Of a stretch of DNA of 64,000 bases, positions 24,581-43,646 are shown piece by piece. Under the pieces are notes generated by a model. It was given only the letters and a program-made list of their open reading frames with translations, had not been told where the DNA came from and did no database searches. The translations under genes were made by a program, and so were the position numbers. This DNA is from a phage: assembly GCA_012690745.1 (NCBI GenBank), contig GCA_012690745.1_4086.2; one strand, 5' to 3'. Within the stretch, counting starts at the first letter, position 1. Each line of letters opens with the position of its first letter.

Positions 24581-24581
24581 C

Positions 24582-27509: not shown

Positions 27510-27510
27510 T

Positions 27511-27753
27511 ATGAAAGTACTGACAGAACTAGAAATGTATCATAGATTTAATAAGTACTATCATTTACTTAAGCCTATACAGAGGATTAAATGTCCATTT
27601 GAAGAGAAACAGGTTTTAATCTATGAGCACAAGTTCTTTGTATCATTAGGTACAGATCAACAAGAGTACTATTTGACGTTGTACTTGATTACATTAATAG
27701 ATTTAATTCACTATAAAACCAAACAAGCTAATAAAGAGAAATATGAAAACTAA
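27511..27753 (+). CDS. small paralog family member 27
   Basis: Trimmed from track 27478 to ATG 27511; motif SLGTDQQEYYL. Confidence 0.55.
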   Translation: MKVLTELEMYHRFNKYYHLLKPIQRIKCPFEEKQVLIYEHKFFVSLGTDQQEYYLTLYLITLIDLIHYKTKQANKEKYEN

Positions 27754-28087
27754 TATACAACTCAAGGTATATAAATCATTTGAACATACATATATCAAAA
27801 GTAGTCTATGTAGAGATGTAATGGATTACAAGGGTAAGCCATTCACAATTACCTATGATTCTTATGTTAGTGATTTATATATATCATTTGTTAATTACGA
27901 AAATAAAATATACAAGCACGTTGATATTAAAGATTTAAGTACTTTATCACCAGAGGAATACTTTCAGGAATCATTAGTATGGGATTTAGAGTTTCCTATG
28001 CCATTAGTACATAAGATGATAGTACTAATGAAAGAATCTAAACAGGAGCCTAATGGTGATTATGAAGAACACACAGTTGAGTATTAA
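27743..28087 (+). CDS. EYFQ-motif paralog family member
   Basis: Track ORF; motif SPEEYFQESLVWD. Confidence 0.6.
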   Translation: MKTNIQLKVYKSFEHTYIKSSLCRDVMDYKGKPFTITYDSYVSDLYISFVNYENKIYKHVDIKDLSTLSPEEYFQESLVWDLEFPMPLVHKMIVLMKESKQEPNGDYEEHTVEY

Positions 28088-28457
28088 AAGTACTGATAAT
28101 ACTAAGAGTTATACAAGCTCAAGTACTGTGACAATCGAAGTGAATTCTATTAATGCTGGTAATGCAGTAGATAAGTTCTTTATTGCTCAAGGGTACAGGA
28201 AAGATATTCATCAATACTGTTCAGTATATGGGGAGTACAATTCTACTGAAGATATAATTTATTGGTCAACACATCAAGATTATATAACTAAAATTGGCGT
28301 TCCAGATGTTAGTACTTTATCTGAAGAAGAATACTTTCAGTACAGCTTAGTACATGATGTACCTATACCTTTAGAGTTGCTCAAGGGTATACAGGAAGAG
28401 GTTCATAAGCTTAAATCCATGAGTTCAGGTACTTTCATTAGAACAGTGCAATACTAG
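28053..28457 (+). CDS. EYFQ-motif paralog family member
   Basis: Track ORF; motif SEEEYFQYSLVHD; start uncertain (35-nt out-of-frame overlap). Confidence 0.5.
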   Translation: MVIMKNTQLSIKSTDNTKSYTSSSTVTIEVNSINAGNAVDKFFIAQGYRKDIHQYCSVYGEYNSTEDIIYWSTHQDYITKIGVPDVSTLSEEEYFQYSLVHDVPIPLELLKGIQEEVHKLKSMSSGTFIRTVQY

Positions 28458-28458
28458 C

Positions 28459-28487
28459 TTGACAGTACTTTTCATTACTGATATAGT
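28459..28487 (+). promoter_or_regulatory. sigma70-like promoter inside the array
   Basis: -35 TTGACA 28459-28464, 17-nt spacer, -10 TATAGT 28482-28487. Confidence 0.55.
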
Positions 28488-28516
28488 ACTTGTACGTTAA
28501 TCATAGGGTAAAAATT

Positions 28517-28762
28517 ATGTTAAATTTTTTAAATTTCCTTATCGTTTTGTGTATTGTTCTTGGGATTGCACCATTTGTATTGTATTTCATGGATTCAGAT
28601 GAAATGCAGAAGATGAATTGCACAAGGACAGGACAGAGTAGAGAAGAGACGATTCTTATGCCTGTTACGGTTATTGTTAACAACATGCCCATTACAAACA
28701 TGGTCCCTACCCTAACGACAACGTACCAGTACTCTTGTACAGATGGAGAGAGGTGGAGATGA
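28517..28762 (+). CDS. hypothetical small membrane protein
   Basis: Trimmed from track 28490 to ATG 28517 (RBS AGGG); N-terminal hydrophobic helix. Confidence 0.5.
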   Translation: MLNFLNFLIVLCIVLGIAPFVLYFMDSDEMQKMNCTRTGQSREETILMPVTVIVNNMPITNMVPTLTTTYQYSCTDGERWR

Positions 28763-29079
28763 AATTTAATATAGCAAAAACATCTAATATATGTATATTT
28801 GGTTATGCCGAAGAGTTGGGTGATATTGACATTCTTTTGTACAAAAAAGATGGTGTTATGCATTTCAAGTACCAGGATGAAGAGGCAGACAATTATTCTT
28901 TACCTAATTTAGTACAAATGCAGGAAGAGGAATTATTCCAGTACAGCTTAGTATATGACATTGATATTTGCACGATGCCAGTACTAATTAATATTCAAAA
29001 AGTGATGCTCGATGTGTTTGATAGGCTAATACAAGGCACACAAGGAAGAACCATATATGTCAATGTACAAGACAATTAA
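28759..29079 (+). CDS. EYFQ-motif paralog family member
   Basis: Trimmed from track 28735 to ATG 28759 (ATGA overlap); motif QEEELFQYSLVYD. Confidence 0.55.
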   Translation: MKFNIAKTSNICIFGYAEELGDIDILLYKKDGVMHFKYQDEEADNYSLPNLVQMQEEELFQYSLVYDIDICTMPVLINIQKVMLDVFDRLIQGTQGRTIYVNVQDN

Positions 29080-29272
29080 TCAAGAATGGAAGACCCAAAA
29101 GTACAGGGAATTCAGTACTAGTTTAACAAAAGATGCATTGAATTTAAAAAGAACAGAGTTTGATATGTTTATTTTTCTTGGAACACGTTCACAGGAACAA
29201 TACATTCATTATTATATAAGTTCATTGCGAACGGAGATCGTATGCAAAACACAGGGTATTATAAAAAAGTAA
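29057..29272 (+). CDS. small paralog family member interleaved in large array
   Basis: Motif FLGTRSQEQYI. Confidence 0.5.
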   Translation: MSMYKTINQEWKTQKYREFSTSLTKDALNLKRTEFDMFIFLGTRSQEQYIHYYISSLRTEIVCKTQGIIKK

Positions 29273-29508
29273 ACCAATATTTGTACGCATCGAAGTACAG
29301 GGATTTTTGTTTAAAGGGTGGTGATGAAGATTTTTCTTTGCGATTATCAGAATTTAATCTGTTATTTTATCTTGGTACAAAAGAACAAGAAGAAATGGCA
29401 CAGAAATTTATCAAGCACCTTTTACAAAAAATTAATATGCAAATTTTGATGCTTAAGTTACAGAATGAGATAAATGAATATGAATCCAGAAATAGTTCAG
29501 GATCTTAA
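29242..29508 (+). CDS. small paralog family member (divergent)
   Basis: Motif YLGTKEQEEMA. Confidence 0.5.
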   Translation: MQNTGYYKKVNQYLYASKYRDFCLKGGDEDFSLRLSEFNLLFYLGTKEQEEMAQKFIKHLLQKINMQILMLKLQNEINEYESRNSSGS

Positions 29509-29866
29509 AAAAGTAATATTTCTTTTGAATACCAGAAGTGAATTGTATACAGAGTTAAAAGAGATTAATGCATTTTATCAGAATTTTGTAATCCAAGAGA
29601 TCAGTGATTTAATTACAGATGCATTATTTGAATTATCGGAGAAATACAAAGGAACAGAGTTCAGTGTTAAGAATGTTATTCGTCCAATTACAAGGAAAAT
29701 TATATTATCACATTTTACATTTGACAATAAAGATTTATTCAGTCATAATCCAAGTACAGCTTTATATTTTATTCCTGATTCAGACAAAAATCATCCTATT
29801 CATTACGGATGGATTTTGTCGTACATAGTACAAGGAAAGGAGTATCCTATTAAATGGAACGATTAG
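29474..29866 (+). CDS. hypothetical protein
   Basis: Track ORF; no clear family motif. Confidence 0.45.
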   Translation: MNMNPEIVQDLKKVIFLLNTRSELYTELKEINAFYQNFVIQEISDLITDALFELSEKYKGTEFSVKNVIRPITRKIILSHFTFDNKDLFSHNPSTALYFIPDSDKNHPIHYGWILSYIVQGKEYPIKWND

Positions 29867-30015
29867 GGCGATTAGATTATTACACAATTAATACAAATTA
29901 TTTGTTGCGTAATATAAAATCCGATTACAAAATATGGATAAAGAACAGAGATAGTATGTGTTATGAATTTTATTTAGATTATGCCATCAAACGCTTTTTA
30001 AGAGAAGAACATTAA
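29854..30015 (+). CDS. hypothetical small protein (53 aa; not in ORF track)
   Basis: ORF filling the gap; stop overlaps next ATG. Confidence 0.3.
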   Translation: MERLGRLDYYTINTNYLLRNIKSDYKIWIKNRDSMCYEFYLDYAIKRFLREEH

Positions 30016-30206
30016 TGCACACACCGCACAAAGAGCACAAAAATACAAAAACGATAAATGTTTTAAATGATTCTTTATTGGTGAGTATAAATTTATATTA
30101 TAAAATTCATTTAAATGGTGGTATTGAAAATTTTAGTTATTATTTGAGTGCAATATCGCAAGAGCATTTAATATACCAAGATCATTTATTGCACCCGAAT
30201 CCATAA
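30015..30206 (+). CDS. hypothetical protein
   Basis: Track ORF. Confidence 0.4.
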   Translation: MHTPHKEHKNTKTINVLNDSLLVSINLYYKIHLNGGIENFSYYLSAISQEHLIYQDHLLHPNP

Positions 30207-30214
30207 GGCAAATT

Positions 30215-30760
30215 ATGAATGATATAGAATTATTAGCACACAAGATTAGTACAATAATGCTTATCCTCAATAACAACCATCCTATATCGCAGATAGATGG
30301 AATCCTGAGTCAGAGGACAGGTGGTAGTTTATATTTGACATTAACAGAGGTTATCGCAAGGAATTACATTGATATTGAAATCGAGAACAGTGATGCATCA
30401 GGAAAGGTTGATGTAGGTGCATTAATCAGTTCAAATCCAGTATCAGCATCACCATTGACAAGAAATGTAAGTACAGGATTCGAAGGGTATTTGTGGTACA
30501 ATACCAATGATGATTATTTTATATATCAGCATTCCAATACAAATTATGATGAAGACAAATTTCAGTTCATAGACCCTTATGATGAAGCTGAAGTATTTCA
30601 AAAATCATTAATCACAAAACCGCATGAGATGATGTATCTAATGTTATTCAGTACAATGCATTTGAATCCATTAATTAAAGGTTTAAAATTTTATATTCAA
30701 TTGAATTTAGTCCATGTAGTTTATGATTTATTAATGCAAGGATATAGTTATGAAGTATAA
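30215..30760 (+). CDS. EYFQ-motif paralog family member
   Basis: Motif DEAEVFQKSLI. Confidence 0.55.
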   Translation: MNDIELLAHKISTIMLILNNNHPISQIDGILSQRTGGSLYLTLTEVIARNYIDIEIENSDASGKVDVGALISSNPVSASPLTRNVSTGFEGYLWYNTNDDYFIYQHSNTNYDEDKFQFIDPYDEAEVFQKSLITKPHEMMYLMLFSTMHLNPLIKGLKFYIQLNLVHVVYDLLMQGYSYEV

Positions 30761-31067
30761 AATGCTTAATACAGCATCAGGGATATATGTAGAATTAGAA
30801 TCCGATTATTCAGATGGATGGAATTTTATTAAACGACACGATAGAAATACATGGTACATGGCACATTTGGATAATGACGTAATAATAGATAATTTTGTCG
30901 ATTTTAATACATTATCAGAAGAAGAATTTTTCCAAATGCAATTTGTGCTTGATACAAATGGATTTGATTTGCTATTATTAAGGAATATTCAGAAAGCGGT
31001 TAATGAATTCATAATCCAAAATAATTCAGGTAAAATGGGGATGTTCCATGATCTGGAAGTACAATGA
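30750..31067 (+). CDS. EYFQ-motif paralog family member
   Basis: Motif SEEEFFQMQFVLD. Confidence 0.55.
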   Translation: MKYKMLNTASGIYVELESDYSDGWNFIKRHDRNTWYMAHLDNDVIIDNFVDFNTLSEEEFFQMQFVLDTNGFDLLLLRNIQKAVNEFIIQNNSGKMGMFHDLEVQ

Positions 31068-31623
31068 AAGCAATGATTACAATGAAATTCAGTACACCTA
31101 CGCTAATGCAATCCTTATGGGACAAAAGTTAGCTTGTATTGTTGCAGCCTTATATAATGCCCAGAAATATCACAAGCGTCATTTCCACAAATGTATTGGT
31201 ATTATTCCATCGAAGTACAATACATATATTGCGTGCACGAGTCATTTTGATAAACGATTCAATACACCTGATACCCCAAATTCCTGTAGTGTTATTGGTC
31301 TTTTGGATTTCGCACCTGGTGCTGTTATTGGAAAGAATGATTTAGAGTACGCATGGTATAATAAAAATGCCCCGTTAGTAATGGTAAAATATGATACAGA
31401 AACGAATAAAACAATAGAGTACAATACATATAAATCAGAGGAAGAATTTTTCCAAGGTTCATTGCTTGTACCAGTGCGTTTGTTATTTTATAATGTCATA
31501 ATGAGTACAGTACACAATAGTCCATTACACAAGAATCACAAAATTAATTTCAATTTTTGTGCTTATGCGATTGATGGTGTGTATGAGTGTTTAATGGAGG
31601 TATTGAGTTATGAAGCTGAATAA
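31048..31623 (+). CDS. EYFQ-motif paralog family member
   Basis: Motif SEEEFFQGSLLV. Confidence 0.55.
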   Translation: MIWKYNESNDYNEIQYTYANAILMGQKLACIVAALYNAQKYHKRHFHKCIGIIPSKYNTYIACTSHFDKRFNTPDTPNSCSVIGLLDFAPGAVIGKNDLEYAWYNKNAPLVMVKYDTETNKTIEYNTYKSEEEFFQGSLLVPVRLLFYNVIMSTVHNSPLHKNHKINFNFCAYAIDGVYECLMEVLSYEAE

Positions 31624-31951
31624 TACATTTGATATTAATAAGTTAAGAGAATGGTTTTATAGTATTGAAATTGAAGCCATCCCGTATCATAGATATGAAC
31701 AATATAATTTAACCAGTATTGATATCAGTGAGTTGTACGCGTATTATCAAAGTGCATTAGAGATGCATAAGTTATTTTTGAGTACAGATTTTGTTCTAAA
31801 TTACAATTTTGAGGAATTTAAAAATTATAATTTAGTACAGAAATATGTAGTAGCAAAGTACATGTACCTTCAAGGAATTACAAGTAATTTGGAATTCAAT
31901 ACAGTCCTTGCTTTAGTTGAGGTAATTTTATGCAGTACATGTATGATTTAG
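31610..31951 (+). CDS. EYFQ-motif paralog family member (divergent)
   Basis: Variant motif SELYAYYQSALEM. Confidence 0.45.
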   Translation: MKLNNTFDINKLREWFYSIEIEAIPYHRYEQYNLTSIDISELYAYYQSALEMHKLFLSTDFVLNYNFEEFKNYNLVQKYVVAKYMYLQGITSNLEFNTVLALVEVILCSTCMI

Positions 31952-32436
31952 AGTTTAGTTTAGATGCTGCCTTTAAATTTGTTCACAAGATAGAAACAAT
32001 ATACAGTACATTATGTGCAATACAATCAGTATCATCTGAGTTTGATGTTGGTGAAAAATATCAGGTATGGAATAATACATTTCTAAACAAAGAACGTTGC
32101 TCTACGGGGTTTAATATTTTAACATTTAATCCCAGCAATTGTTACCCAGAGAAGCATGAACGTTATCCGAATGACGACATGTGGTTTGATTACACAAAAG
32201 ATGGTGATATGTCATCCCTTGTAGTTCCTGATGATTTTAATGCCGAAGATTTAACGGAAGAGTGGTGGTTTCAACAGAATTTAGTACACGATGATATTGA
32301 TTTATTTTTTTATGTAGTATTTAAAATGCTTTACCACAACAATATATTAAAAGATAGTGTGTTTTTTTCATGTCTATATATTGATGATTTGTACAATGAA
32401 ATCCAAATCAACATTCCCAGCACGCCTGTATCGTAA
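31930..32436 (+). CDS. EYFQ-motif paralog family member
   Basis: Motif TEEWWFQQNLVHD. Confidence 0.55.
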   Translation: MQYMYDLEFSLDAAFKFVHKIETIYSTLCAIQSVSSEFDVGEKYQVWNNTFLNKERCSTGFNILTFNPSNCYPEKHERYPNDDMWFDYTKDGDMSSLVVPDDFNAEDLTEEWWFQQNLVHDDIDLFFYVVFKMLYHNNILKDSVFFSCLYIDDLYNEIQINIPSTPVS

Positions 32437-32461
32437 GATATGGGCTTTTTTCGTTTTGGTA

Positions 32462-32490
32462 TTGACAAAGAAGTGCAAAGCTGTTATCAT
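32462..32490 (+). promoter_or_regulatory. sigma70-like promoter inside the array
   Basis: -35 TTGACA 32462-32467, 17-nt spacer, -10 TATCAT 32485-32490. Confidence 0.5.
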
Positions 32491-32518
32491 GTGTAATCAT
32501 TTTAAAGGAGAACATATA

Positions 32519-33031
32519 GTGAGTTTCATAATCCCAAGTACATACGAAGATGCATCAAGTGCAGTTCATAAGATTCATTATATTTTTAATTTAATTATTA
32601 GATCTGCAAAAATTAAAATGTATGCACCTCTTGTGGAATACGATAAAAATGAGGAAATTTTTGTTAGCACAGACCAAATTATTTTTCCATATTTCAATGA
32701 AGATAGATTGTGGTTCATGCATTTAGCTGCATTACAAAAATATAAAATGTCAATTCGTAATAATTTGGATATACCGTTATATCATCCTGATATTGGAGAG
32801 GATGAATATTTTCAGTACAGTACAGTACACCGCCATGAAGATATCTTTGTTGCTATGCTTATTGCTAAATTGAATACCGTTGATTTGGAGCAGTACAAAT
32901 ACAATAATAAATCATGTAAGATCATAATCCCTGCATTCATAGCTCTTTATGATTATGTGGTGCATAACAAAAAAGATGATACATATGCTTTCAATGAAGA
33001 GTATTTGAATTTTTTTAAGGAGAACATATGA
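32519..33031 (+). CDS. EYFQ-motif paralog family member
   Basis: Start moved to GTG 32519 (RBS AAGGAG 8 nt upstream); motif GEDEYFQYSTVH. Confidence 0.5.
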   Translation: MSFIIPSTYEDASSAVHKIHYIFNLIIRSAKIKMYAPLVEYDKNEEIFVSTDQIIFPYFNEDRLWFMHLAALQKYKMSIRNNLDIPLYHPDIGEDEYFQYSTVHRHEDIFVAMLIAKLNTVDLEQYKYNNKSCKIIIPAFIALYDYVVHNKKDDTYAFNEEYLNFFKENI

Positions 33032-33555
33032 GCAGTGAAGTGCTGAAATCAATGACATTCAATGAAATTGGTACATTTAAAGATAAGATCATTGATTGCA
33101 TTGAATACATGATTTGTAGTAATATCGAAAGTATCGAGATATTTAACAAGACAAATCGCTCTTACCATATGATGTACATTGCAAACAATAATGGTATCAT
33201 TCCATTTATTTCGGATAGTACAATATGGTACGCATGTGATACGAAAAAAACCACAATAGGTTTACATTCATTTGAGACACATTATGATCTAATTATTCCT
33301 GAACATTGTATGCAAGAAGAAGAATATTTTCAAATGCAATGTATACATTCACCATTAGTGTTGTTTAGTTTATATATTATACCTTATATCACCAAATGTG
33401 TTCATGAGAATAAAGCTCCGTGGAATCATGAATTTGTATCGTTGAAGTTATTGTATAATGTATTAGTAGAATATTATGATTACAGGCACAATGGTACAAT
33501 CAGTGATGTATGGGATTTTGAATCGCTAAGGGTGAAAACATACACAGGTGAATGA
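33028..33555 (+). CDS. EYFQ-motif paralog family member
   Basis: ATGA overlap; motif QEEEYFQMQCIH. Confidence 0.55.
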   Translation: MSSEVLKSMTFNEIGTFKDKIIDCIEYMICSNIESIEIFNKTNRSYHMMYIANNNGIIPFISDSTIWYACDTKKTTIGLHSFETHYDLIIPEHCMQEEEYFQMQCIHSPLVLFSLYIIPYITKCVHENKAPWNHEFVSLKLLYNVLVEYYDYRHNGTISDVWDFESLRVKTYTGE

Positions 33556-34171
33556 TATGACCAGAATTAAAATGTATGATTTGATGCTGTACAGTAAAAT
33601 TGCCATTCCAGTGCTTAATAAAGTGCTGGATGCATTCATTGCCAAATACCCTGAGAATTCAGTGTTATGTATTCCATTTAGTGTTCCAGATAAAGATGAT
33701 ATATTCCAAGTGAATGTCAGTACACGTGGTATTACATTGCAGCAGAAATATATGGATACGGAATATTATGGAATAAAGTTGGATTCAGTACAGGGTTCTA
33801 AATCAGCCTATGATTTTTTTGTTCCTAATAACATCGAGTCATGGGAAACAAACATTTCAAAGAAAGATGAAAATGATGTTCCTATTAGTGGTGTGTTCAA
33901 CAATAAAGTTTTTTATTATTACGAAACCGACAAATTCCCTGAAGAGTTATATTACAATTCAGAAATGAATGAAGATGTAGATGCATTCATGTTTCAATTA
34001 TCGTTAGTACATGATATCATTGATGTTCAAGAGTTAAGAGCAGAAATCAATTTAGCTAAAGAGTTATCGGACATGCTCCCACCGTTTAGTATGCTTTTTT
34101 GTGAAGGAGGTTATTTTTCAAAAGAAGTGTTTGAACATTTCGTAGATGTTGTAAAAGGGTTGGATATATAG
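33548..34171 (+). CDS. EYFQ-motif paralog family member
   Basis: Motif DAFMFQLSLVHD. Confidence 0.55.
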   Translation: MNDMTRIKMYDLMLYSKIAIPVLNKVLDAFIAKYPENSVLCIPFSVPDKDDIFQVNVSTRGITLQQKYMDTEYYGIKLDSVQGSKSAYDFFVPNNIESWETNISKKDENDVPISGVFNNKVFYYYETDKFPEELYYNSEMNEDVDAFMFQLSLVHDIIDVQELRAEINLAKELSDMLPPFSMLFCEGGYFSKEVFEHFVDVVKGLDI

Positions 34172-34172
34172 T

Positions 34173-34367
34173 ATGCTTATAATTGATATTAAACAAAAAT
34201 ACCGTAAGTTTGATTGGTTCACCGATAGTTTCCAGCTTGAATTATTACATATGAATATCAGTGAAACATTATGTGCAGAAACACAAGATGAATTTGATGA
34301 TAGAGTGATGAACATAGTAATGCTTTCTTGCTTTAAACATTTTGGTTATTTTTTCGGACAGTATTGA
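34173..34367 (+). CDS. hypothetical small protein
   Basis: Track ORF; no family motif. Confidence 0.4.
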   Translation: MLIIDIKQKYRKFDWFTDSFQLELLHMNISETLCAETQDEFDDRVMNIVMLSCFKHFGYFFGQY

Positions 34368-34375
34368 GGTAAAAA

Positions 34376-34891
34376 ATGCATCAACACAAGCATCATTCAT
34401 ATGATTTTGCAATTAACATTATGAAGTTTATTCGAGCGTTGGAGGATGGGAAGCTTAGTCATAAGTACAGGAAAGAGGGTAACAATTGGTTCAGAAATGA
34501 TTCCGAGTTCAGTTGTCATAAAATCGTGTATAGTAATCAGTACAGTGCCAATTACCTACAAGATGTAGTGATGTGTTTTGAATACGTGTTGCAGTTCAGG
34601 GGTTCAATCCAAGATGAGTTGATGGAGAACATGTACATCCGATACCTTCCAATGCTCAAAGATGAAAATGTATTATTAAATTCAATATACCAACGAGTTC
34701 GTGAAATTGAGTGCAGGGATATATTAGATACAGAAGAATCGTATTTCCAGCAATCCCTGATTTATTCACCTGATTTATTACAGGTACATAATTTGTTTAA
34801 TACATTACGTCAGAACATCAGTACAGACATATTTTTGTCATTATCGGATTATGATACATTTGTCAAAGATTTAGAGGAAATAGGTTTATGA
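34376..34891 (+). CDS. EYFQ-motif paralog family member
   Basis: Motif TEESYFQQSLIY. Confidence 0.55.
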   Translation: MHQHKHHSYDFAINIMKFIRALEDGKLSHKYRKEGNNWFRNDSEFSCHKIVYSNQYSANYLQDVVMCFEYVLQFRGSIQDELMENMYIRYLPMLKDENVLLNSIYQRVREIECRDILDTEESYFQQSLIYSPDLLQVHNLFNTLRQNISTDIFLSLSDYDTFVKDLEEIGL

Positions 34892-35232
34892 GTCGATTTT
34901 CGGTTTATATAGTAAACGTCAGTAAAGATGGTAGTTTAATTGAATTTGATGTAGTTGATAACAATGATAATTCATATGGTATTAAGGTACAGGACAATGA
35001 TGTACAGTTCAGTACAAGGACAAATTTTGAGAATCCAGTCCAAGTTCCGAATTTCATAGAAGATGAAGCTGCACGATTCCAATACGAAACGGCCTTTGAT
35101 AATGTACATATGCATATTATTATGCAACAAAGTTTAGTTCAATTAGTTCCTTTGTTCAGACAAAATATATATGTACATGAAGTGTCGATTAATGGCATTC
35201 AAAGTTCCGTATTGTTCGATACAAATATGTAA
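34888..35232 (+). CDS. EYFQ-motif paralog family member (divergent)
   Basis: ATGA overlap; motif DEAARFQYETAFD. Confidence 0.5.
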   Translation: MSRFSVYIVNVSKDGSLIEFDVVDNNDNSYGIKVQDNDVQFSTRTNFENPVQVPNFIEDEAARFQYETAFDNVHMHIIMQQSLVQLVPLFRQNIYVHEVSINGIQSSVLFDTNM

Positions 35233-35242
35233 GGAAAGTACA

Positions 35243-35794
35243 ATGAGTTCAATGAGTTTATTAGATACATTAGAAAAAGACAGAAGTGCAATTAAGCGTT
35301 TAAAAGAGCAAGTACAAAAGATTGTATACAACGTTGATAAGTTTGAGGTTCCCGGAAGATTTGGTGATATTTCCCATACGGAGATCAAATCCCTTAAGTC
35401 AGATTTGTTGATTAAAAATAAAAATGGGTTGATTTTAGTTTTGAGTTCAGATATGATGGGGGCAACACATAGTTATAATGCCGTATCGGTGCGTTCCGAG
35501 TGTGAAGGTATATATCTATCACAGGGTTTCAATAGCGAGACACAGGTTTGTTTTTGTGATGCAGTACATGACCCTATGAAGTTCACGAGAAGTGAAGCCC
35601 AAGCGTTATTAGAGCTATCAGACGAGAGTTTGTTTCAGTACAGTACAATGTATGACAATGATAAGCTTCGTTGTATGTACGCTGTAAAGCATTATACACA
35701 GGAGTTTTCTGGATTTGCATACCTTTTAGTTAGAACCAATACCAGATATATTGATATGTTAGAAGATTACATCGATAAAGTTGTTAATGTATGA
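35243..35794 (+). CDS. EYFQ-motif paralog family member
   Basis: Trimmed from track 35171 to ATG 35243 (RBS AAGGAAAG); motif DESLFQYSTMYD. Confidence 0.55.
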   Translation: MSSMSLLDTLEKDRSAIKRLKEQVQKIVYNVDKFEVPGRFGDISHTEIKSLKSDLLIKNKNGLILVLSSDMMGATHSYNAVSVRSECEGIYLSQGFNSETQVCFCDAVHDPMKFTRSEAQALLELSDESLFQYSTMYDNDKLRCMYAVKHYTQEFSGFAYLLVRTNTRYIDMLEDYIDKVVNV

Positions 35795-35814
35795 TTTTGT
35801 GATGGGATGGGATA

Positions 35815-35982
35815 ATGCTGATGAAAGAGTTATTTGAAGATCAGTTCAATACATATGTGGATAATATTCTTTATTCCAGCCGTGCTAGTCAACGAGGAAA
35901 TCGTGCTTACAATATAGATTACCTATTAGTGGTGCTGAGTTCACAGTACACCTACGCTGTACAGAGGACATATTATGAATAA
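35815..35982 (+). CDS. hypothetical small protein (55 aa; not in ORF track)
   Basis: ORF in gap; 3' end overlaps next start. Confidence 0.35.
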   Translation: MLMKELFEDQFNTYVDNILYSSRASQRGNRAYNIDYLLVVLSSQYTYAVQRTYYE

Positions 35983-36178
35983 TTTTAGAGATGTTGCTAA
36001 GGAGAAGTTCAAGTGCAGTTTAGATTTTGGGTTAAATGATTTTCTGACATGCACAATGTACAGGAATGATGATTATGAGCAATCCGTAATTTCGTTGCAC
36101 AGATATTTCGAAATAATTTACGCAAGATATCTTAGAAGGTTAGAGGGAATAGGGGATTGGAATTATGATTACGTTTGA
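35975..36178 (+). CDS. hypothetical small protein
   Basis: Track ORF. Confidence 0.4.
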   Translation: MNNFRDVAKEKFKCSLDFGLNDFLTCTMYRNDDYEQSVISLHRYFEIIYARYLRRLEGIGDWNYDYV

Positions 36179-36389
36179 AGAGCCGGAAGTGGCATATTGC
36201 TTTAGTGTGAAAGGTTTTGAATTCATGATGGATTCTATTTTGAAGGATACATATTTGGTTCAGATTGCAGTTGCAGATAATACAGATAATGCATTACAGC
36301 GAGTATTGAATATATACGAGAGGACGAGTCGAAGGCTTTGTGCAATGAAAAGGATTGAAGAAATCAAGGTTTCTAGGCTGAATAAATAG
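36165..36389 (+). CDS. hypothetical small protein
   Basis: Track ORF. Confidence 0.4.
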   Translation: MITFEEPEVAYCFSVKGFEFMMDSILKDTYLVQIAVADNTDNALQRVLNIYERTSRRLCAMKRIEEIKVSRLNK

Positions 36390-36585
36390 AGACGTTTCAT
36401 TTTGACAGGCCGCAGGGGGGTCAAAAAAATTTCCGCTGAAAAACATGCTAAGGTATATGTTTAATATAAAGTTTTATATTGTGTTTTTCAGAGTACAGTT
36501 CATGTTTCCTGAAACAAAAAATACCCCGCCGCCGAACGTTCTCCTTATATTGGAGTTTACCTTATTAATTATAGTAGAGATTAAG

Positions 36586-36963
36586 ATGGAAATAAAATAT
36601 AATGAATTTTGTGCAAGGACATGGATGTACACTGGTGAGTTAGTTACGCACTCTAACTTATACAAGGGTGATTTAAACTACGCTAGGGACAAGATTTTAA
36701 AGTACTGGAATGCTGACTTTTATTTGATGGATTTTAGTACTGGGTTTAGGGGTAAAGCAACCGAGATGTTGGACTATACAGTACTTGATGATGCTACACT
36801 GTTTCAGGCGGCATTAGTATTTGATAAGAAGTACATCTGTACATTAGAAGAGATGATTGAATTACAGCGTAGAATTAAATGTATTCACAGGGAATGTATA
36901 GATATCTGGTGCAGTACTGGTGAAGATGATTTTTGTAATCATTTCAATCTAGGGGAAGTGTGA
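36586..36963 (+). CDS. EYFQ-motif paralog family member
   Basis: Trimmed from track 36445 to ATG 36586 (RBS GAGA); motif DATLFQAALVFDKKYICTLEEM. Confidence 0.55.
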   Translation: MEIKYNEFCARTWMYTGELVTHSNLYKGDLNYARDKILKYWNADFYLMDFSTGFRGKATEMLDYTVLDDATLFQAALVFDKKYICTLEEMIELQRRIKCIHRECIDIWCSTGEDDFCNHFNLGEV

Positions 36964-37124
36964 TGGAATTTGATTTTTTAATATCAGTACATTCTTTTAA
37001 GCACAGTTATCAGTACTTTTGTAATTTAAACAAAGGTGATTTGATTATGGATACAGATACAGAGGCTGTATACAGTTCTAATATTCTGTACAAATTCAGT
37101 ACTAATCTGAAGGAGATTTTATGA
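36963..37124 (+). pseudogene. truncated N-terminal duplicate of the 37492 paralog (53 codons)
   Basis: MEFDFLISVHSFKHSYQYFCNLNKGDL is near-identical to N-terminus of 37492..37848 but ORF ends after 53 codons. Confidence 0.45.
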
Positions 37125-37492
37125 AAAAAGAAATTAGAATTCAATTCGGTATGAGGAAAAAAGAGGTCATCTGTACACTGAATCATGCGGTCGTGGAAAG
37201 CCTTGGTGGTGCATTACAAAAATTCTCCCATTTTGTTCTTGTACTATATGAAAATGGGTCTTTTAAAATCTTCACATATGATGATTCAAAAAATTACCGT
37301 AATGATTTTGTAAATCTGACAGTACTGTCAGAAGAGGAATTCTTTCAGGAAAGTACTGTCTGGAATTTACCAGGAGCACCAATTGAATACGTCCGTGCTA
37401 CACAGGCAGAAATGATCAAAGTAATGCAGAACTATCCAGAAGATTATATGACTAAGTTTCCTGAATCTATTTATGTAGAGGTTGAGTACTGA
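37121..37492 (+). CDS. EYFQ-motif paralog family member
   Basis: ATGA overlap; motif SEEEFFQESTVWN. Confidence 0.55.
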   Translation: MKKEIRIQFGMRKKEVICTLNHAVVESLGGALQKFSHFVLVLYENGSFKIFTYDDSKNYRNDFVNLTVLSEEEFFQESTVWNLPGAPIEYVRATQAEMIKVMQNYPEDYMTKFPESIYVEVEY

Positions 37493-37848
37493 TGGAATTT
37501 GATTTTTTAATATCAGTACATACTTTCAAGCACAGTTATCAGTACTTTTGTAATTTAAACAAAGGTGATTTAATGCACAGTGCAAATGAGTATATTCATT
37601 ACACTCAGGGTAAATTTACATTCATTGATTACAGTTCATTACAGTATCCACACCAAGATATGCCGGACTATACATTAATGGATACCGCAGAACTATTCCA
37701 AGAATCATTAGTATTTGATAAGAAGTACTTGTGTACATTTGAAGAAGTTATTGCAATACAAAATGAAATGAAAGAGTATGCTGCTTTGCATAAACCCAAT
37801 GCAAGTATTAATCAAGAATACAAATTCAATTTAGGAATTCAAGAATGA
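37492..37848 (+). CDS. EYFQ-motif paralog family member
   Basis: Motif TAELFQESLVFDKKYLCTFEE. Confidence 0.55.
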   Translation: MEFDFLISVHTFKHSYQYFCNLNKGDLMHSANEYIHYTQGKFTFIDYSSLQYPHQDMPDYTLMDTAELFQESLVFDKKYLCTFEEVIAIQNEMKEYAALHKPNASINQEYKFNLGIQE

Positions 37849-38204
37849 CATATGATTATTCTATGTACTATTATAAGTTACCTAAAGGATGGGACTTGTG
37901 CTGTAATCTTATTAAGGGCGACTCGGAACATGAGTTGAGTTTATATATGCATTACAAAGATTCTTGTTTTAAATTTATTCATGTATCACATGACGACTAT
38001 GACTATGAATCTGAGAGTCTTATAGATTATACAGTACTGGACGATGGTGAACTATTTCAGGCTGCATTAGTGTTTGATAAGAATAAGTACTCCTGTACAT
38101 TTGAAGAAATGGTTTCTTTGCAAAATGAAATGAAGAGATTTGAAAAAGAAAACGTATTTAATCCATCCCCATCAAGAACGAATAATTATTATTTCAATAT
38201 ATGA
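37845..38204 (+). CDS. EYFQ-motif paralog family member
   Basis: ATGA overlap; motif DGELFQAALVFDKNKYSCTFEE. Confidence 0.55.
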   Translation: MTYDYSMYYYKLPKGWDLCCNLIKGDSEHELSLYMHYKDSCFKFIHVSHDDYDYESESLIDYTVLDDGELFQAALVFDKNKYSCTFEEMVSLQNEMKRFEKENVFNPSPSRTNNYYFNI

Positions 38205-38213
38205 GATTATAAA

Positions 38214-38705
38214 ATGACATTACAGAGTTCATTGGAAAAAGCAAAGAAGATTCATGAGTACATGAATATGGCAAAAGAAGGTTCAGTTTACGGTGTTTTC
38301 AAAGACACAAGTACTCAATATTATGTACCGGATAACCTCCTTTATAATGACTGCTCAGATACAGAAACGTGCGTACTGGATACAGAAACGTGCATACTAG
38401 ATACCGACCCTAATGATTATGAATGCTTCATTAATATGCATAATGAGTACATGGTCTATATTAATGATACAGATACCATCAACAGTACTGACAGCGATTC
38501 CAATGACATTATAATTCCGAGTGAAGTACTGGAAGGTCCGTGGGATAGTGAAGAGTATTACTTCCAACAAAGTACTGTATATGATAATGAAGTACTTGAT
38601 GTTATTATAATTATGTGGTACTTTAAAAGTATTGGTTCTGGGAACTTCTATTTCGATTACAAATACGTAAAGAAAACTGTAGATAACGGTATTAACAGGG
38701 GTTGA
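38214..38705 (+). CDS. EYFQ-motif paralog, MSLQSAL subfamily
   Basis: Motif LEGPWDSEEYYFQQSTVYD. Confidence 0.6.
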   Translation: MTLQSSLEKAKKIHEYMNMAKEGSVYGVFKDTSTQYYVPDNLLYNDCSDTETCVLDTETCILDTDPNDYECFINMHNEYMVYINDTDTINSTDSDSNDIIIPSEVLEGPWDSEEYYFQQSTVYDNEVLDVIIIMWYFKSIGSGNFYFDYKYVKKTVDNGINRG

Positions 38706-38706
38706 A

Positions 38707-39177
38707 ATGAGTTTAGAAAGAGCATTAGAGATTGCGAAGTTAATTGATTTATGCAGCAAAGAAATTGTAGCAAATTGTCTTAATGGATATCTATTCAAGG
38801 AAGGTAAATCATATTGTCGAATGAGATACGATGACAGTAGTGAGTACATTCACATGTATGAAGAAAACTTAGATTCTTCTGAAACAACACTCAATGGGTG
38901 TGATGTTAATTTGGAAGATAATTACATGTACTTCTGTCGTGATGCTGATATTTTAATACAAGATTCTGACATTATATCTGGTGCAGCAGAGAAACATCTT
39001 CCGTATTCAGTACTGGATAATGACTGGGGAAGTGAAGAGTACTACTTCCAGCAGAATACTATCTACGAGGAAGATGTACTTGACAAGCTTGTCATTCTGT
39101 GGTACTTTAATAATACAGATTGTCCTAGCTTCTATTTGGACTTGGATCTACTACGAGTTATTAAAGAGGATATATGA
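38707..39177 (+). CDS. EYFQ-motif paralog, MSLQSAL subfamily
   Basis: Motif NDWGSEEYYFQQNTIYE. Confidence 0.6.
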   Translation: MSLERALEIAKLIDLCSKEIVANCLNGYLFKEGKSYCRMRYDDSSEYIHMYEENLDSSETTLNGCDVNLEDNYMYFCRDADILIQDSDIISGAAEKHLPYSVLDNDWGSEEYYFQQNTIYEEDVLDKLVILWYFNNTDCPSFYLDLDLLRVIKEDI

Positions 39178-39617
39178 GTTTAGCAAGTGCACTTGAACTA
39201 GCACACAGAATACATCACTTCCACGATAACATAAAAAGTGGGTTCTATGGTGATAAAGTAAGTGCATTTGGTGATGAGTATTATCTATCAGGTATAAAGA
39301 CATACTCTGATGATATTTTACTTATGGGACAGGATAAAGACAATACTATACAGTACTCTTCATGTAGTCAATATACTAATTTTTTTGTATATATTCCAGG
39401 TACTAAGATTACTTTTGACACAACAAATACACCTGTTGACTTCGGGGTACTTGATGGCCCGTGGGGTACTGAAGAGTATTACTTCCAACAGAGTCTCATT
39501 TTTAACCAAGAAATTCTTGATTCCTTGGTTGTGTTGTGGTACTTTAAGGAATTGAATTTTGAACCATTCTTTCTTGACTGGGGAGCATGTGAATATTTAA
39601 GTACAGGGGATTTGTAA
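39174..39617 (+). CDS. EYFQ-motif paralog, MSLQSAL subfamily
   Basis: ATGA overlap; motif DGPWGTEEYYFQQSLIFN. Confidence 0.6.
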   Translation: MSLASALELAHRIHHFHDNIKSGFYGDKVSAFGDEYYLSGIKTYSDDILLMGQDKDNTIQYSSCSQYTNFFVYIPGTKITFDTTNTPVDFGVLDGPWGTEEYYFQQSLIFNQEILDSLVVLWYFKELNFEPFFLDWGACEYLSTGDL

Positions 39618-40105
39618 TGTCATTACAAAGTGCATTGAAAGAAGCAAAGAAGATTCATGAGTACATGATTATGGTACAGGAAGGTTCAGTACCAGGTGTA
39701 TATAAAACATCTGATACTGAATTTTTTGTAAAAGACCGTGACGATTATGACGAGTCCGAGATATGTGCAGAAACATTAGTACTGCACACTGATACTGGTG
39801 ACAGTGATAACTGTGAATATCATATGTACAATCAGTACATTAGTTATTGCCGTAATGAAGATATTACCATCTACAACACAGATAGTGATGCTGATGACAC
39901 TATCATTCCTTATTCAGTACTGGAAGGACCGTGGGATAGTGAAGAATATTACTTCCAGAATAGTACGTTGTACAATGAAGAAGAATTAGATGTTATTGTA
40001 ATTATGTGGTATTTCAAAAGTATTGACTCCAGTAGTTTCTATTTTGATTATGAATATGTAGAGAATACTGTAGGAGAAGGTAATGTCATTACAAAGTGCT
40101 CTTGA
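39617..40105 (+). CDS. EYFQ-motif paralog, MSLQSAL subfamily
   Basis: Motif LEGPWDSEEYYFQNSTLYN. Confidence 0.6.
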   Translation: MSLQSALKEAKKIHEYMIMVQEGSVPGVYKTSDTEFFVKDRDDYDESEICAETLVLHTDTGDSDNCEYHMYNQYISYCRNEDITIYNTDSDADDTIIPYSVLEGPWDSEEYYFQNSTLYNEEELDVIVIMWYFKSIDSSSFYFDYEYVENTVGEGNVITKCS

Positions 40106-40535
40106 AAAAGCAAAAGAACTACATGGATACTTTGAAGATATAAAGGCAGGAAAGTTCAAAGAAGTGTACAAAGCCGAGAACGGCAACTACTACAAGGATG
40201 AAATGTATAATAACTCCGTTGGTGTAAGGGTTATTCTTGGGTTGAATTCCAATAGTCCTATATCGTTTTCTGAATACAATAGAGATGCAGAATTTATTAG
40301 TTATGTTGAAAATGGTAGCATTCGTTTTATTAATCGCAAAAAACCATTAATTTTGAATTATGAAGTACTGGAAGGTCCGTGGGATAGTGAAGAGTATTAC
40401 TTCCAAAACAGTACTGTTTACGATGATGAAGTACTTGAAGCATTAGTTATTATGTGGTACTTAAAGAGTGTTAACTGTCCTCGATTTTATTTGGATTTCG
40501 AAGAACTTCGTAAAGATCCAGAAGGTATAGAATGA
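40083..40535 (+). CDS. EYFQ-motif paralog, MSLQSAL subfamily
   Basis: Motif LEGPWDSEEYYFQNSTVYD. Confidence 0.6.
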   Translation: MSLQSALEKAKELHGYFEDIKAGKFKEVYKAENGNYYKDEMYNNSVGVRVILGLNSNSPISFSEYNRDAEFISYVENGSIRFINRKKPLILNYEVLEGPWDSEEYYFQNSTVYDDEVLEALVIMWYLKSVNCPRFYLDFEELRKDPEGIE

Positions 40536-40846
40536 AAAACTTATTCAGTGTTCAGTACGTCCCTGGTGAAATTAGTTTATTGTATCTGTTTGATCATGAT
40601 AATTCATTATTACTAGTAGTAAAGAAATGCCAAGCTAGTTCGTTTGTTGAATACATTCACGATAGTGAATATATACCTGATTTTTTAGAGTGTGATTATT
40701 ACGATGAACATGAATCATTTATTTTCCAGGAATCTCTCGTATGGGATAAATCGATCAACTTCTTTACGTTAATTGAATTACAAAAGCAGGTGAAGTATCA
40801 TTGGGATTATTTAATCACACAGGATTACATTGAGATAGAAATATAA
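40532..40846 (+). CDS. EYFQ-motif paralog family member
   Basis: ATGA overlap; motif HESFIFQESLVWD. Confidence 0.55.
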   Translation: MKNLFSVQYVPGEISLLYLFDHDNSLLLVVKKCQASSFVEYIHDSEYIPDFLECDYYDEHESFIFQESLVWDKSINFFTLIELQKQVKYHWDYLITQDYIEIEI

Positions 40847-41154
40847 TGACTAAAAATGAATTTGATTCACTTTGTACGGTTTATAATTCATTGACAGAAA
40901 TACCTGACTTTATTAATTACATTTCAGCTTTAAATCAAATTATGCATAGTTTTGAACAATCGTTTGAAGAGAAATATGCTGGTAGAAAAGTTCTATGTCA
41001 TATGTCAATGTACTTAGGAGATGGTGAGCCTTACACTACAAGTACTACATGTGAAATAAAAAAATATAATATATTATTGGGGACAATAGAATTCACAGTA
41101 TCCAATGGTGGTAGTTATATGTACTTTAGAGATGGAGTGGTTGAATTATTATGA
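40846..41154 (+). CDS. hypothetical protein
   Basis: Track ORF; no family motif. Confidence 0.45.
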   Translation: MTKNEFDSLCTVYNSLTEIPDFINYISALNQIMHSFEQSFEEKYAGRKVLCHMSMYLGDGEPYTTSTTCEIKKYNILLGTIEFTVSNGGSYMYFRDGVVELL

Positions 41155-41600
41155 GTTACGAAAGTGCAATCAAGAAAGCAAATGATATTCTACGCGTCGT
41201 TAAATTCTTCAAAGAAAATCCTGAATACTTAGCTGATGAAAACCATGATCACGATGAGAGATTGAGACGAAAAATTGTCGCTTTATTTGACACTAATGCG
41301 GATAATTATAGTCTAATTGAGTTAGCATACGATTATATTTCATTGAACCGAAACGGCAATATAGTTAATATAGAAAGACATGCAACTGAAGAATCTTTTA
41401 AAATTTCAGATATTTTATCCCTGAGTACTGAAGAAGGGTACTTCCAGGGTAGTACTGTTTATGAACAAGGAACACTTGACAATCTATGCACATTCAGTGT
41501 AATATATCAGAAATCTGTACTAGATGTATTTTATCTTGACACTGCTGAACTGGATACACTAACCAATTTTGTTACTACTGAAGAGGCTACATTCGAGTGA
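41151..41600 (+). CDS. EYFQ-motif paralog (MSYESAI N-terminus, related to MSLQSAL subfamily)
   Basis: ATGA overlap; motif TEEGYFQGSTVYE. Confidence 0.55.
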   Translation: MSYESAIKKANDILRVVKFFKENPEYLADENHDHDERLRRKIVALFDTNADNYSLIELAYDYISLNRNGNIVNIERHATEESFKISDILSLSTEEGYFQGSTVYEQGTLDNLCTFSVIYQKSVLDVFYLDTAELDTLTNFVTTEEATFE

Positions 41601-42133
41601 TGAAAGTTAACATCAATGACTTTGATGCATTACAAGATTTATCAAAAAAGATTCGCACCATTGTACCAGTACTCAAAAAATGCAGTACTGGTTTAATCGA
41701 TCCTAGTACTGTTGTTAATGAGAAGTACAATTTTCATTATGTATTACAGGGTACTGGGGCATTCCAGAAGTGTGAGGTGCGTGAGACACACGTAATTGAT
41801 ACATCATTGTTTTCTATTGGTGCACCTGTGTCGAATAATACTATTTTCCTAGACAACGCTGGAAATATTCAACAATTAACATTTAAGAAAAGGAAAAAGA
41901 ACAATAACATTGGTGTGTATGCGATGAAGTGGGGTCAACCTGATTTGAAGCGTGAAATTCACATCCCTAAGTACAATTACAATGCATTTGACGAACAGTG
42001 TTTTCAACTATCGTGTACTGACCCTGACTATGCTATCATTCAGTTCTATATGGAATTGCAGATAGCATTTAACAGTAATTTGTATATTAACTTATTGGCG
42101 ATTAACATTGATGAAGTATTCAAAAACATTTAA
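41597..42133 (+). CDS. EYFQ-motif paralog family member (divergent)
   Basis: ATGA overlap; motif DEQCFQLSCTDP. Confidence 0.5.
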   Translation: MMKVNINDFDALQDLSKKIRTIVPVLKKCSTGLIDPSTVVNEKYNFHYVLQGTGAFQKCEVRETHVIDTSLFSIGAPVSNNTIFLDNAGNIQQLTFKKRKKNNNIGVYAMKWGQPDLKREIHIPKYNYNAFDEQCFQLSCTDPDYAIIQFYMELQIAFNSNLYINLLAINIDEVFKNI

Positions 42134-42329
42134 TCGAATTGAATACATGAGAACTGTGAGTGCAGTGTGGGACATATGGTTCACTACTAAACCAAAAATG
42201 GATTACCATGACTTTAAGCTCTTGTTCTTCGTTGGCTCTAACAAACAGGATGTTGCAATGAAGGGTTATATTCAGCACTTACAGGAACTAATCCAGAAGA
42301 GAATATATGAAAATAATAGACCAAAATGA
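42108..42329 (+). CDS. small paralog family member interleaved in large array
   Basis: Motif FFVGSNKQDVAMKGYIQHL; start uncertain. Confidence 0.45.
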   Translation: MMKYSKTFNRIEYMRTVSAVWDIWFTTKPKMDYHDFKLLFFVGSNKQDVAMKGYIQHLQELIQKRIYENNRPK

Positions 42330-42498
42330 CATTGCTAAACTATTCAATATATATTCTACTAGAATGATGCAAACAGACTCATATAGTACTGAATTCAAAG
42401 AGTTGAAAGTCCTGATGTACTTGGGAACCCAATATCAGGAACAAGTTATTTTGGAATATATTAATTCGCTGAAGAAGGATATCCGTTATGTACGATGA
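42307..42498 (+). CDS. small paralog family member interleaved in large array
   Basis: Starts MKII; motif MYLGTQYQEQVI. Confidence 0.5.
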   Translation: MKIIDQNDIAKLFNIYSTRMMQTDSYSTEFKELKVLMYLGTQYQEQVILEYINSLKKDIRYVR

Positions 42499-43048
42499 TT
42501 TAGATATTGCGTTTGAACGTATGGTAATTTTAATGCAATGTGCAGAAATGCATGAAACAATCCGTCGCACCAAAGGGATTGAATATACAAGTAAACTATT
42601 CTCATACGAAAGTCGTCGAGGGATGGATCATTTTTACTGCACTGATTGTTCAAAGTTTTCAGTACTGAAATATTATCATCCTACTGTTTCCAATAATAGT
42701 TTAATATCCACATATGACGGTGATCTGTTTAGTGTAATGTATGACACATTACATCCATCAATTTCAATCTATAAAGATTGCGATAGTAGTTTATCGTATA
42801 TAATTGAAGATTACTTATCTCCTAATACTGAAGAGAATATTTTTCAGAACAGTGTGTTGCATGATGAATTAAGTATAAAATGCATCTATATGTTCAATAA
42901 GTTAAAAGAGTACGCCGATAATAATTACTTAATTGATAAGTTAGCAGTATTGTCTGTTTCCGTTTTTAATACAAATGACATTGATATGAAATACTATAAT
43001 GAGATTTGTAAAGTACATCATATGTATAAGGAACTATTATGTCAATAA
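42488..43048 (+). CDS. EYFQ-motif paralog family member
   Basis: Motif TEENIFQNSVLHD. Confidence 0.55.
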   Translation: MYDDLDIAFERMVILMQCAEMHETIRRTKGIEYTSKLFSYESRRGMDHFYCTDCSKFSVLKYYHPTVSNNSLISTYDGDLFSVMYDTLHPSISIYKDCDSSLSYIIEDYLSPNTEENIFQNSVLHDELSIKCIYMFNKLKEYADNNYLIDKLAVLSVSVFNTNDIDMKYYNEICKVHHMYKELLCQ

Positions 43049-43641
43049 ATGCAAATAAATGTTGTAGTGCAGATGTGCATTTGTTTTTTAAGAAATTAGC
43101 AAATGATATTATATATATGCAGGAAATGATTTATCACAAACGAGCGGATTTAGAAAAAGCATTAGTACAGTTCTCATTTATGCTTGATGGTGATATATTT
43201 CTAGAGAGTGATGCATTGCGAATAGTATTAGACAAAAATGCTAAAAGATTTTTATTTCATATAGATAATAAATTATGTTCCTCCGTATGTCGTACTTTTT
43301 ATAATCGTGATTCGGACTTATATCAATTCCTTTATTCTAAAGGTGCAGTAGAAGCATCATATGGTGATGGTTATGCCCTAGGAAAGAGTATTCCATTTAT
43401 GAAATCATTTAAAATAGAACACATCAGTACTGATGAAGATGCAATGTTCACAAATGATATAACTATGGGACGTGAAGATGCAATGCGATATATTACAAAT
43501 TCTATGCATACATTCTTTCAACGAACAGAATTTGATAATGTATATATATCAAATGTAAATATTTTCAATGACCTGTGTCAGTACTTGAGAAGTGTTTGTG
43601 ATTTTGATGAAAGCTATTGTAAGCTTTATACTGAGGTATAA
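43039..43641 (+). CDS. hypothetical protein (weak family resemblance)
   Basis: Track ORF; degenerate motif EDAMFTNDITMG. Confidence 0.45.
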   Translation: MSINANKCCSADVHLFFKKLANDIIYMQEMIYHKRADLEKALVQFSFMLDGDIFLESDALRIVLDKNAKRFLFHIDNKLCSSVCRTFYNRDSDLYQFLYSKGAVEASYGDGYALGKSIPFMKSFKIEHISTDEDAMFTNDITMGREDAMRYITNSMHTFFQRTEFDNVYISNVNIFNDLCQYLRSVCDFDESYCKLYTEV

Positions 43642-43646
43642 AACAA

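Follow-up and report, generated by a model that had tools for sequence, protein, structure and literature searches.

Two multigene families lie side by side in a 64,000-nucleotide (nt) stretch of phage DNA (NCBI GenBank assembly GCA_012690745.1, contig GCA_012690745.1_4086.2; the whole stretch is hereinafter called the window): a tandem array of small genes, followed by a longer array of large ones, all of them on the + strand. Four open reading frames (ORFs) of the small type, arranged as two pairs (29057 and 29242, pair 1; 42108 and 42307, pair 2; ORFs are named by their first position), stand among the large-family genes, which raises the question of what connects the two families. A first-pass annotation of the sequence had offered two answers, recombination that shuffles cassettes between the arrays, or small proteins that are a minimal version of the large-family C-terminal domain. 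We consider a different answer probable: the four ORFs are genuine, functional and diverged paralogs of the phrog_4148 type that are unrelated to the large family, occupy ancient positions in its array and are linked to it by position and probably by transcription.

The window comes from an Asteriusvirus (121Q/PBECO4-type) jumbo coliphage and is 96-97% identical to published genomes. Positions 28000-43000, which contain both pairs, match Escherichia phages SHEFM2K, CRJP21, G17, phAPEC6 and 121Q over their full length at 96-97% identity, and the relatives that match this segment are without exception Asteriusvirus-type jumbo phages of Escherichia coli or Salmonella.

The four embedded ORFs are diverged members of the small family

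A hidden Markov model (HMM) built only from the 27 tandem genes of the small array (21745-27753) was searched against the 350 six-frame ORFs of the window with a length of at least 40 amino acids (aa). It recovered its own 27 members and exactly four more ORFs, 29057, 29242, 42108 and 42307, at expect values (E) of 1e-11 to 1e-6; no further ORF was found at E<=10. The four, which the first-pass annotation had located correctly and assigned to the small family, lie on the + strand and also match phrog_4148 (PHROGs v4; a family of unknown function from Asteriusvirus and Alcyoneusvirus), with which they share the length class and the L-G-T-x-x-Q...L core. They differ from it in two ways: with the array HMM they score 23-39 bits, as against 58-90 bits for the others, which makes them the window's most divergent small members, and one of them has Ser for Thr.

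The small-family core, h-L-G-T-x-x-Q-[ED]-x-x-h...h-I..L, lies about 20 residues before the C-terminal end in all four. The G-T-x-x-Q motif that had been ascribed to each of them is literally present in three, 42108 having G-S-x-x-Q. The core of the large family reads [ST]-E-E-E-[YL]-F-Q-x-S-[LT]-[VI], with F-Q invariant in the alignment of all 39 members. The embedded ORFs do not have this motif: their corresponding segment reads L-G-T-x-[Y/K/E/S]-Q-[ED] and lacks both the acidic run and the Ser at +2. The earlier description of the four as lying deep within the large array is accurate for pair 2, which is flanked by 22 large-family genes upstream and 17 downstream, but not for pair 1, which lies only three large-family genes (~1.3 kb) beyond the end of the small array.

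Comparison with WPEC5, whose DNA is 76-82% identical in these regions, shows all four reading frames intact and the motif kept. The ratio of nonsynonymous to synonymous substitution rates (dN/dS, Nei-Gojobori) relative to WPEC5 is 0.40 for 29057, whose WPEC5 ortholog is fast-evolving, 0.32 for 29242, 0.16 for 42108 and 0.19 for 42307, similar to the 0.14-0.28 of the large-family genes that flank the pairs; the product of 42108 is 82% identical in aa sequence to its WPEC5 ortholog. Three of the four starts are preceded by a Shine-Dalgarno sequence (AAGGAAG before 29057), and for the third ORF the ATG at 42111, used in WPEC5, is a more likely start than the TTG at 42108. We conclude that purifying selection acts on the four ORFs, which are diverged members of the small family.

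The small and large families are unrelated in sequence and predicted fold

The proposal that the large-family C-terminal domain gave rise to the small proteins, as a minimal or truncated version of itself, has two observations in its favour: both families have a conserved Gln after an aromatic residue with hydrophobic positions following, and they are adjacent and co-inherited. Profile-profile comparison by HHalign finds no relationship between them. With the whole large-family alignment and with its 75-residue core, in local, greedy and global modes, the probability is 0.17-0.25% and E 0.24-0.35, and three of 100 column-permuted small alignments equal the real score. The weak best path does not touch the GTxxQ motif but places the small N-terminus (L-T-x-x-E-Y) on L-S-E-E-E-Y-F-Q. 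The segments paired in this way share an h-[ST]-x-x-E-aromatic pattern, which is a helix N-cap pattern. In HMM searches, the full-length large-family model finds no small-family ORF at E<=10, and the large-core model with all filters off gives small members 1-3 bits (E 1.3-9), among antisense ORFs and hence at noise level.

The statement that both cores centre on an aromatic-Gln-Glu/Ser segment is loosely true. An aromatic residue precedes the Gln in 18 of 31 small members and in 39/39 large ones; Glu or Asp follows it in 25 of the 31 small members, while Glu does so in only 8 of the 39 large ones, of which 30 have Ser at +2. Among 98 unrelated ORFs of the window, 10 likewise contain the tripeptide [FYW]Q[EDS]. 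Position by position, the two cores have only the aromatic residue and the Gln in common: the Gln is preceded by L-G-T-[ND] in the small family versus S-E-E-E-[YL] in the large one, and followed by E-x-Y-V-x-x-Y-I, with helical spacing, versus x-S-[LT]-[VI]-aromatic-D.

Structure prediction likewise separates the families. The small family was modelled by AlphaFold2 (AF2) on 42307, the sole embedded member modelled, from a 50-sequence family alignment, and the large family on 38214, also by AF2. The 42307 model is a confident three-helix bundle (predicted local distance difference test score, pLDDT, 91; helices 6-22, 28-38 and 44-62), in which helix 2 is joined to helix 3 by a loop that contains L-G-T, and helix 3 begins with the conserved Gln. 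The 38214 model is alpha/beta (pLDDT 84, above 90 over the C-terminal third) and runs from an N-terminal helix through five strands, helix 113-120, an extended T-V-Y-D, helix 125-139 and a strand to the last helix. Helix 113-120 is exactly E-E-Y-Y-F-Q-Q-S. The Gln thus lies at the start of a long helix in the small model and near the end of a short helix in the large one.

The large core resembles the recognition pattern of the tobacco etch virus (TEV)/NIa protease, E-x-x-Y-x-Q-S/G. A reading of E-E-E-Y-F-Q-x-S as such a site was dropped, as the segment is modelled as a short, tightly packed helix (pLDDT >90) and the position that follows the Gln varies; the resemblance is probably a coincidence.

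A Foldseek search of viral predicted structures (BFVD) with the small model returned nine Asteriusvirus proteins of 49-76 aa with template-modelling (TM) scores up to 0.99, including TM 0.72-0.82 for small-family paralogs of 18-32% identity; none of its hits from these phages had the size of a large-family member. When 1.84 billion representative proteins were searched with the small profile, 95 clusters matched, nearly all of 52-102 aa. The only match of large-family size is P0205 (269 aa), which is also the only long small-family protein and consists of a small domain followed by ~200 aa. We rejected P0205 as a small-plus-large fusion: its C-terminal ~200 aa have no match to the large family. 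Taken together, the HHalign probabilities near 0.2%, the noise-level HMM scores, the different predicted folds and the restriction of BFVD matches to the small family largely refute the derivation of one family from the other, to which we assign next to no remaining probability. The small and large families are unrelated in sequence and predicted fold.

Both pairs occupy ancient syntenic positions

If homology does not explain the interleaving, the four genes might have been moved recently by recombination from the main small array into the large one. Cassette gain and loss, flanked by 85-nt repeats, is indeed visible inside the large array (see below), and phages differ at the site just before pair 1. 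The four genes, however, are at most 33% identical to any window paralog, those of the main array included, and their best matches are often one another. No DNA repeats or segmental duplication were found around either pair, and the flanks of pair 1 show no similarity to those of pair 2. On these grounds, and with a small-family neighbour-joining tree that is star-like and uninformative (bootstrap <65, no supported clades), a recent translocation or segmental duplication was rejected.

The positions themselves are conserved. Both pairs stand at identical places in 32-34 of 36 Asteriusvirus records (32 and 33 when counted by pair), down to 76% identity. In A4, the most divergent member of the genus examined, the order of small (s) and large (L) genes is s×20, L, s, L, L, s, s, L×15, s, s, L×21. 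RaK2, a Klebsiella phage of the genus Alcyoneusvirus, has both families in a far more mixed order (ssLLssLLLLLLssLsssssssLLsLLL...), with small genes in at least five blocks among ~30 large-family genes (NC_019526.1, 232000-281900). ORF 29242 and a RaK2 small gene (23186-23410 within that segment) are reciprocal best hits and the strongest cross-genus pair. Gene 28735, the large-family member that precedes pair 1, finds its best match in RaK2 just upstream of the small pair that contains the partner of 29242. At pair 2, the upstream gene 41597 matches RaK2 ORF398 (31% over 172 aa, E 3e-13). Next after ORF398 come three small-family genes, and it is these that 42307 matches best in RaK2.

Because the genes that flank the pairs also adjoin small-family genes in RaK2, the embedding predates the split of the genera. 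Both pairs are at ancient syntenic positions, and the simplest reading is that interleaving is ancestral to Asteriusvirus and Alcyoneusvirus, the 27-gene block being most likely a later, Asteriusvirus-specific tandem amplification of a boundary block. Given positions that are shared throughout the genus and, together with the flanking genes, by RaK2, a recent move of the four genes is highly improbable. Shuffling of cassettes between the arrays, as first proposed, is at odds with these fixed positions; the interpretation was wrong in its timing.

Two RaK2 small proteins (13149-13535 and 16814-17161 of the same segment) carry extra C-terminal extensions of ~50 aa that are mutually alike.

Both families were detected in the same two genera

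In word-indexed searches of 5.8 billion proteins, every occurrence of either family was in a contig of this phage group or in an E. coli assembly containing it. Consensus tblastn against 50,697 phage records was positive for the small family in 46 records and for the large one in 43, which are the same 36 Escherichia/Salmonella phages and 7-10 Klebsiella phages. Outside the two genera, neither family was detected among these records at the sensitivity used, and single-sequence tblastn with RaK2 members reached no further genera.

Recombination within the large array

No cassette shuffling between the families was seen; gain and loss occur inside the large array. Two 85-nt direct repeats there bracket a segment with one large-family gene (Table 1). 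UE-S1 has a single repeat copy and lacks both the segment and the gene, which indicates cassette gain or loss by recombination between the 5' ends of paralogs; ORF 36960..37124 repeats the start of gene 37492 in truncated form. In another Asteriusvirus, genes like 36445 and 37492 (window 36445-37848) are fused into a 242-aa product, P0101, with two EE[YL]FQ cores, so that neighbouring paralogs can merge into two-domain proteins. The copy number of the small family is 13-23 tblastn places per genome.

Just upstream of pair 1, positions 28457-28735 are a variable hot spot. The window has a 90-aa phrog_8826 ORF there, A4 has a plain small-family gene, and the P0205 gene (8001-8810 of three other Asteriusvirus loci) occupies the equivalent spot. 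The 90-aa ORF (28490-28762) has a strongly hydrophobic N-terminal segment (LNFLNFLIVLCIVLGIAPFVLYF) and may encode a small membrane protein heading the unit of pair 1.

The pairs share gene runs with large-family genes

The arrays together span ~34 kb, near 10% of the genome, and their genes overlap by 4-35 nt almost everywhere. The large-family members match several PHROGs of unknown function, and about 20 other small ORFs of different PHROGs are interspersed among them. Between 21700 and 56100, + strand ORFs are missing from only six stretches of 25 nt or more (339 nt, 1% of the region). Five of the six hold a sigma70-like site scoring at least 10/12 (21717, 28459, 36402, 44875 and 48765), which amounts to 5 of the 28 such sites in the region, and the sixth holds a terminator-like hairpin.

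These signals divide the arrays into runs. The run from the 21717 promoter continues gap-free from the small array into the large-family genes 27743 and 28053. Pair 1 lies in a unit from ~28.49 kb to a hairpin at 32.42-32.45 kb, where the hairpin and the promoter that follows it are the probable end of the run, and pair 2 in a unit from ~36.43 to 44.88 kb; both units consist mostly of large-family genes. The layout resembles a small number of long units transcribed by host RNA polymerase, and a positional and transcriptional link between the families, judged from these shared overlapping runs, the sigma70-like promoters and the shared genera, is plausible. In this respect the suggestion that the families may be linked stands, and its evolutionary part, homology, was not found.

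No gene product between gp347 and gp549 of phAPEC6 was detected in virions of that phage (PMC7247149). The phAPEC6 ortholog of 38214 is gp442c, which lies in this range, and the virion proteome of phAPEC6 includes no ortholog.

Table 1. Coordinates of the two arrays, the embedded genes and the associated signals in the window
Feature	Position	Strand	Description
Main small-family tandem array	21745..27753	+	27 genes, ~70 aa, phrog_4148 type; consensus ..LGTNYQEEYV..YI..L...I..K
Large-family array	27743..56093	+	39 members, ~105-225 aa; from iterated HMM, core HMM and alignment
Small-family gene, first of pair 1	29057..29272	+	71 aa; HMM E 1.4e-11; phrog_4148 E 4e-9
Small-family gene, second of pair 1	29242..29508	+	88 aa; HMM E 5.9e-7; phrog_4148
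Small-family gene, first of pair 2	42108..42329	+	72-73 aa; HMM E 1.4e-6; phrog_4148
Small-family gene, second of pair 2	42307..42498	+	63 aa; HMM E 1.4e-11; full-length phrog_4148 match E 1e-16
Non-family gene directly upstream of pair 2	41597..42133	+	phrog_18780
85-nt direct repeats	36961-37045 and 37490-37574	+	96% identical; bracket 444-nt segment with large-family gene 37121..37492
ORF-free gaps	21700-21744, 28458-28489, 36390-36444, 44879-44937, 48734-48820, 52033-52093	+	Free of + strand ORFs; at least 25 nt each
Sigma70-like promoter	21717..21744	+	In gap before small array
Sigma70-like promoter	28459..28487	+	TTGACA-17-TATAGT, TG-extended, in 32-nt ORF-free gap; heads run of pair 1
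Terminator-like hairpin	32424-32445	+	Followed by sigma70-like promoter 32462-32490
Sigma70-like promoter	36402..36430	+	In ORF-free gap; heads run of pair 2
TG-extended sigma70 consensus	44875..44904	+	Perfect, 12/12; in next ORF-free gap; starts following run

Three ORFs of the large array, 33548-34171, 34888-35232 and 41597-42133, have recognisable x-F-Q-x-S/T cores (FMFQLSLVHD, ARFQYETAFD and QCFQLSCTD) and do not rise above the HMM threshold. If they are very divergent relatives of the large family, as they may be, that family exceeds 39 copies. The part of the window that precedes the arrays (1-21700) has a different architecture, in which small + strand ORFs are spaced by gaps of ~70-100 nt with strong sigma70-like sites, including a perfect consensus at 19892-19919, and hairpin terminators, for example at 20188-20215.

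Possible roles of the two families

We propose that each pair is part of a run of overlapping, probably translationally coupled + strand genes that it shares with large-family genes, and that the sigma70-type promoter ahead of each run would have it read by host RNA polymerase early in infection. Both families would then be non-virion accessory proteins, each built on a small stable scaffold, the three-helix bundle or the acidic alpha/beta domain, with variable surfaces. Duplication and recombination may have increased the number and diversity of their copies, which would bind host targets in host takeover or counter-defence. The recombination part of this proposal has direct support, because the repeat-flanked cassette around 37121..37492 is absent in UE-S1.

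Several points weigh against the reading of the four ORFs as unrelated, anciently placed and co-expressed paralogs. The contrast between the folds comes from comparing two models at the level of secondary structure, and neither family has a Pfam, NCBIfam or PDB match, by sequence or fold. Co-occurrence in two genera that are sisters counts as no more than one or two independent cases, and the cross-genus orthology is built on short alignments of 34-172 aa. The promoters are consensus matches whose total count is not above that of shuffles in AT-rich DNA; only their concentration in the gaps is unusual. The host-interaction role is drawn from context only.

Interleaving could also reflect a two-component logic, in which small and large proteins are physical or functional partners, the one an adaptor, regulator, chaperone or neutraliser and the other an effector. 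In favour of such a partnership, the interleaving is conserved in two genera, the families share gene runs in which stop and start codons overlap, phage records show the same phyletic distribution for both, and their average charges are opposite (median isoelectric point, pI, 8.2 in the small family versus 5.0, with a net charge of -9, in the large one). The numbers, on the other hand, are not one-to-one (31 small versus at least 39 large genes), 27 small genes stand in a row without partners, the small-family pI spans 4.5 to 9.95, and the 95 small-family clusters contain no two-domain fusions. We regard the partnership as unlikely. A more specific form, likewise unlikely, is a conserved two-component system: the acidic alpha/beta proteins would have basic-leaning three-helix partners, whether adaptors, regulators or neutralisers. 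The mixed array, which holds ~70 genes (~10% of a 350-kb genome) and has been kept since before the Asteriusvirus/Alcyoneusvirus split, would on this reading be a diversified repertoire of pairs against variable host targets or defences.

The small proteins might instead be helix-turn-helix (HTH)-like, DNA-binding regulators of their own gene runs. Like tri-helical HTH and homeodomain-like domains, the small model has three helices of similar lengths, the loop that connects helix 2 to helix 3 contains a conserved Gly, and many members have Lys/Arg-rich C-termini. Unlike those domains, its third helix, the putative recognition helix, begins with an acidic Q-E-E, and the charge varies between members, the pI not being consistently basic. 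Foldseek against the PDB with the small model gave no significant match (best E 2.8; homeodomains at E 5-7 and TM ~0.35), no Pfam HTH family was matched, and thirty-one regulators for a single locus are implausible. A role of this kind is very unlikely.

Parts of this region have been described before. In the retrieved passages, phage 121Q is reported to carry a tandem array of '>30 very similar genes', which is attributed to tandem duplication as a means by which jumbo-phage genomes become larger (Hua et al. 2017, mBio, PMC5646251), and ~10% of RaK2 gene products are reported to be paralogues (PMC3622015). These passages concern the same genomic region and the same phage group; they do not separate the two families and do not mention interleaving, cross-genus conservation, folds or expression signals. 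A term search of the literature returned nothing on function, two-family structure or interleaving.

We regard the embedded copies as ordinary diverged paralogs and the whole feature as an ordinary part of the known jumbo-phage paralog arrays. Large DNA viruses have comparable gene 'accordions' and multigene families, such as poxvirus K3L amplification and the multigene families (MGF) of African swine fever virus (ASFV). The arrays resemble these in the tandem amplification and diversification of small non-structural genes, in copy-number differences between strains and in repeat-mediated gain and loss. They differ in that the copies are old and diverged (15-50% identity) and not recent amplifications, and in that the selective agent or host target is not known here.

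The specific claim of the first-pass annotation adds little to this picture, the homology it proposed being absent. What matters more for these phages is that near 10% of a jumbo-phage genome is devoted to two ORFan families without known fold or function. That the families are unrelated, have been interleaved in shared, probably co-transcribed runs since before the two genera diverged, are preceded by host-type promoters and are absent from the virion proteome narrows the roles they may play: the age of the interleaving, the promoters and the virion data together suggest that both are probably early accessory proteins and candidates for host takeover or counter-defence. The promoter-delimited units and the natural presence/absence variants offer experimental handles on that function.

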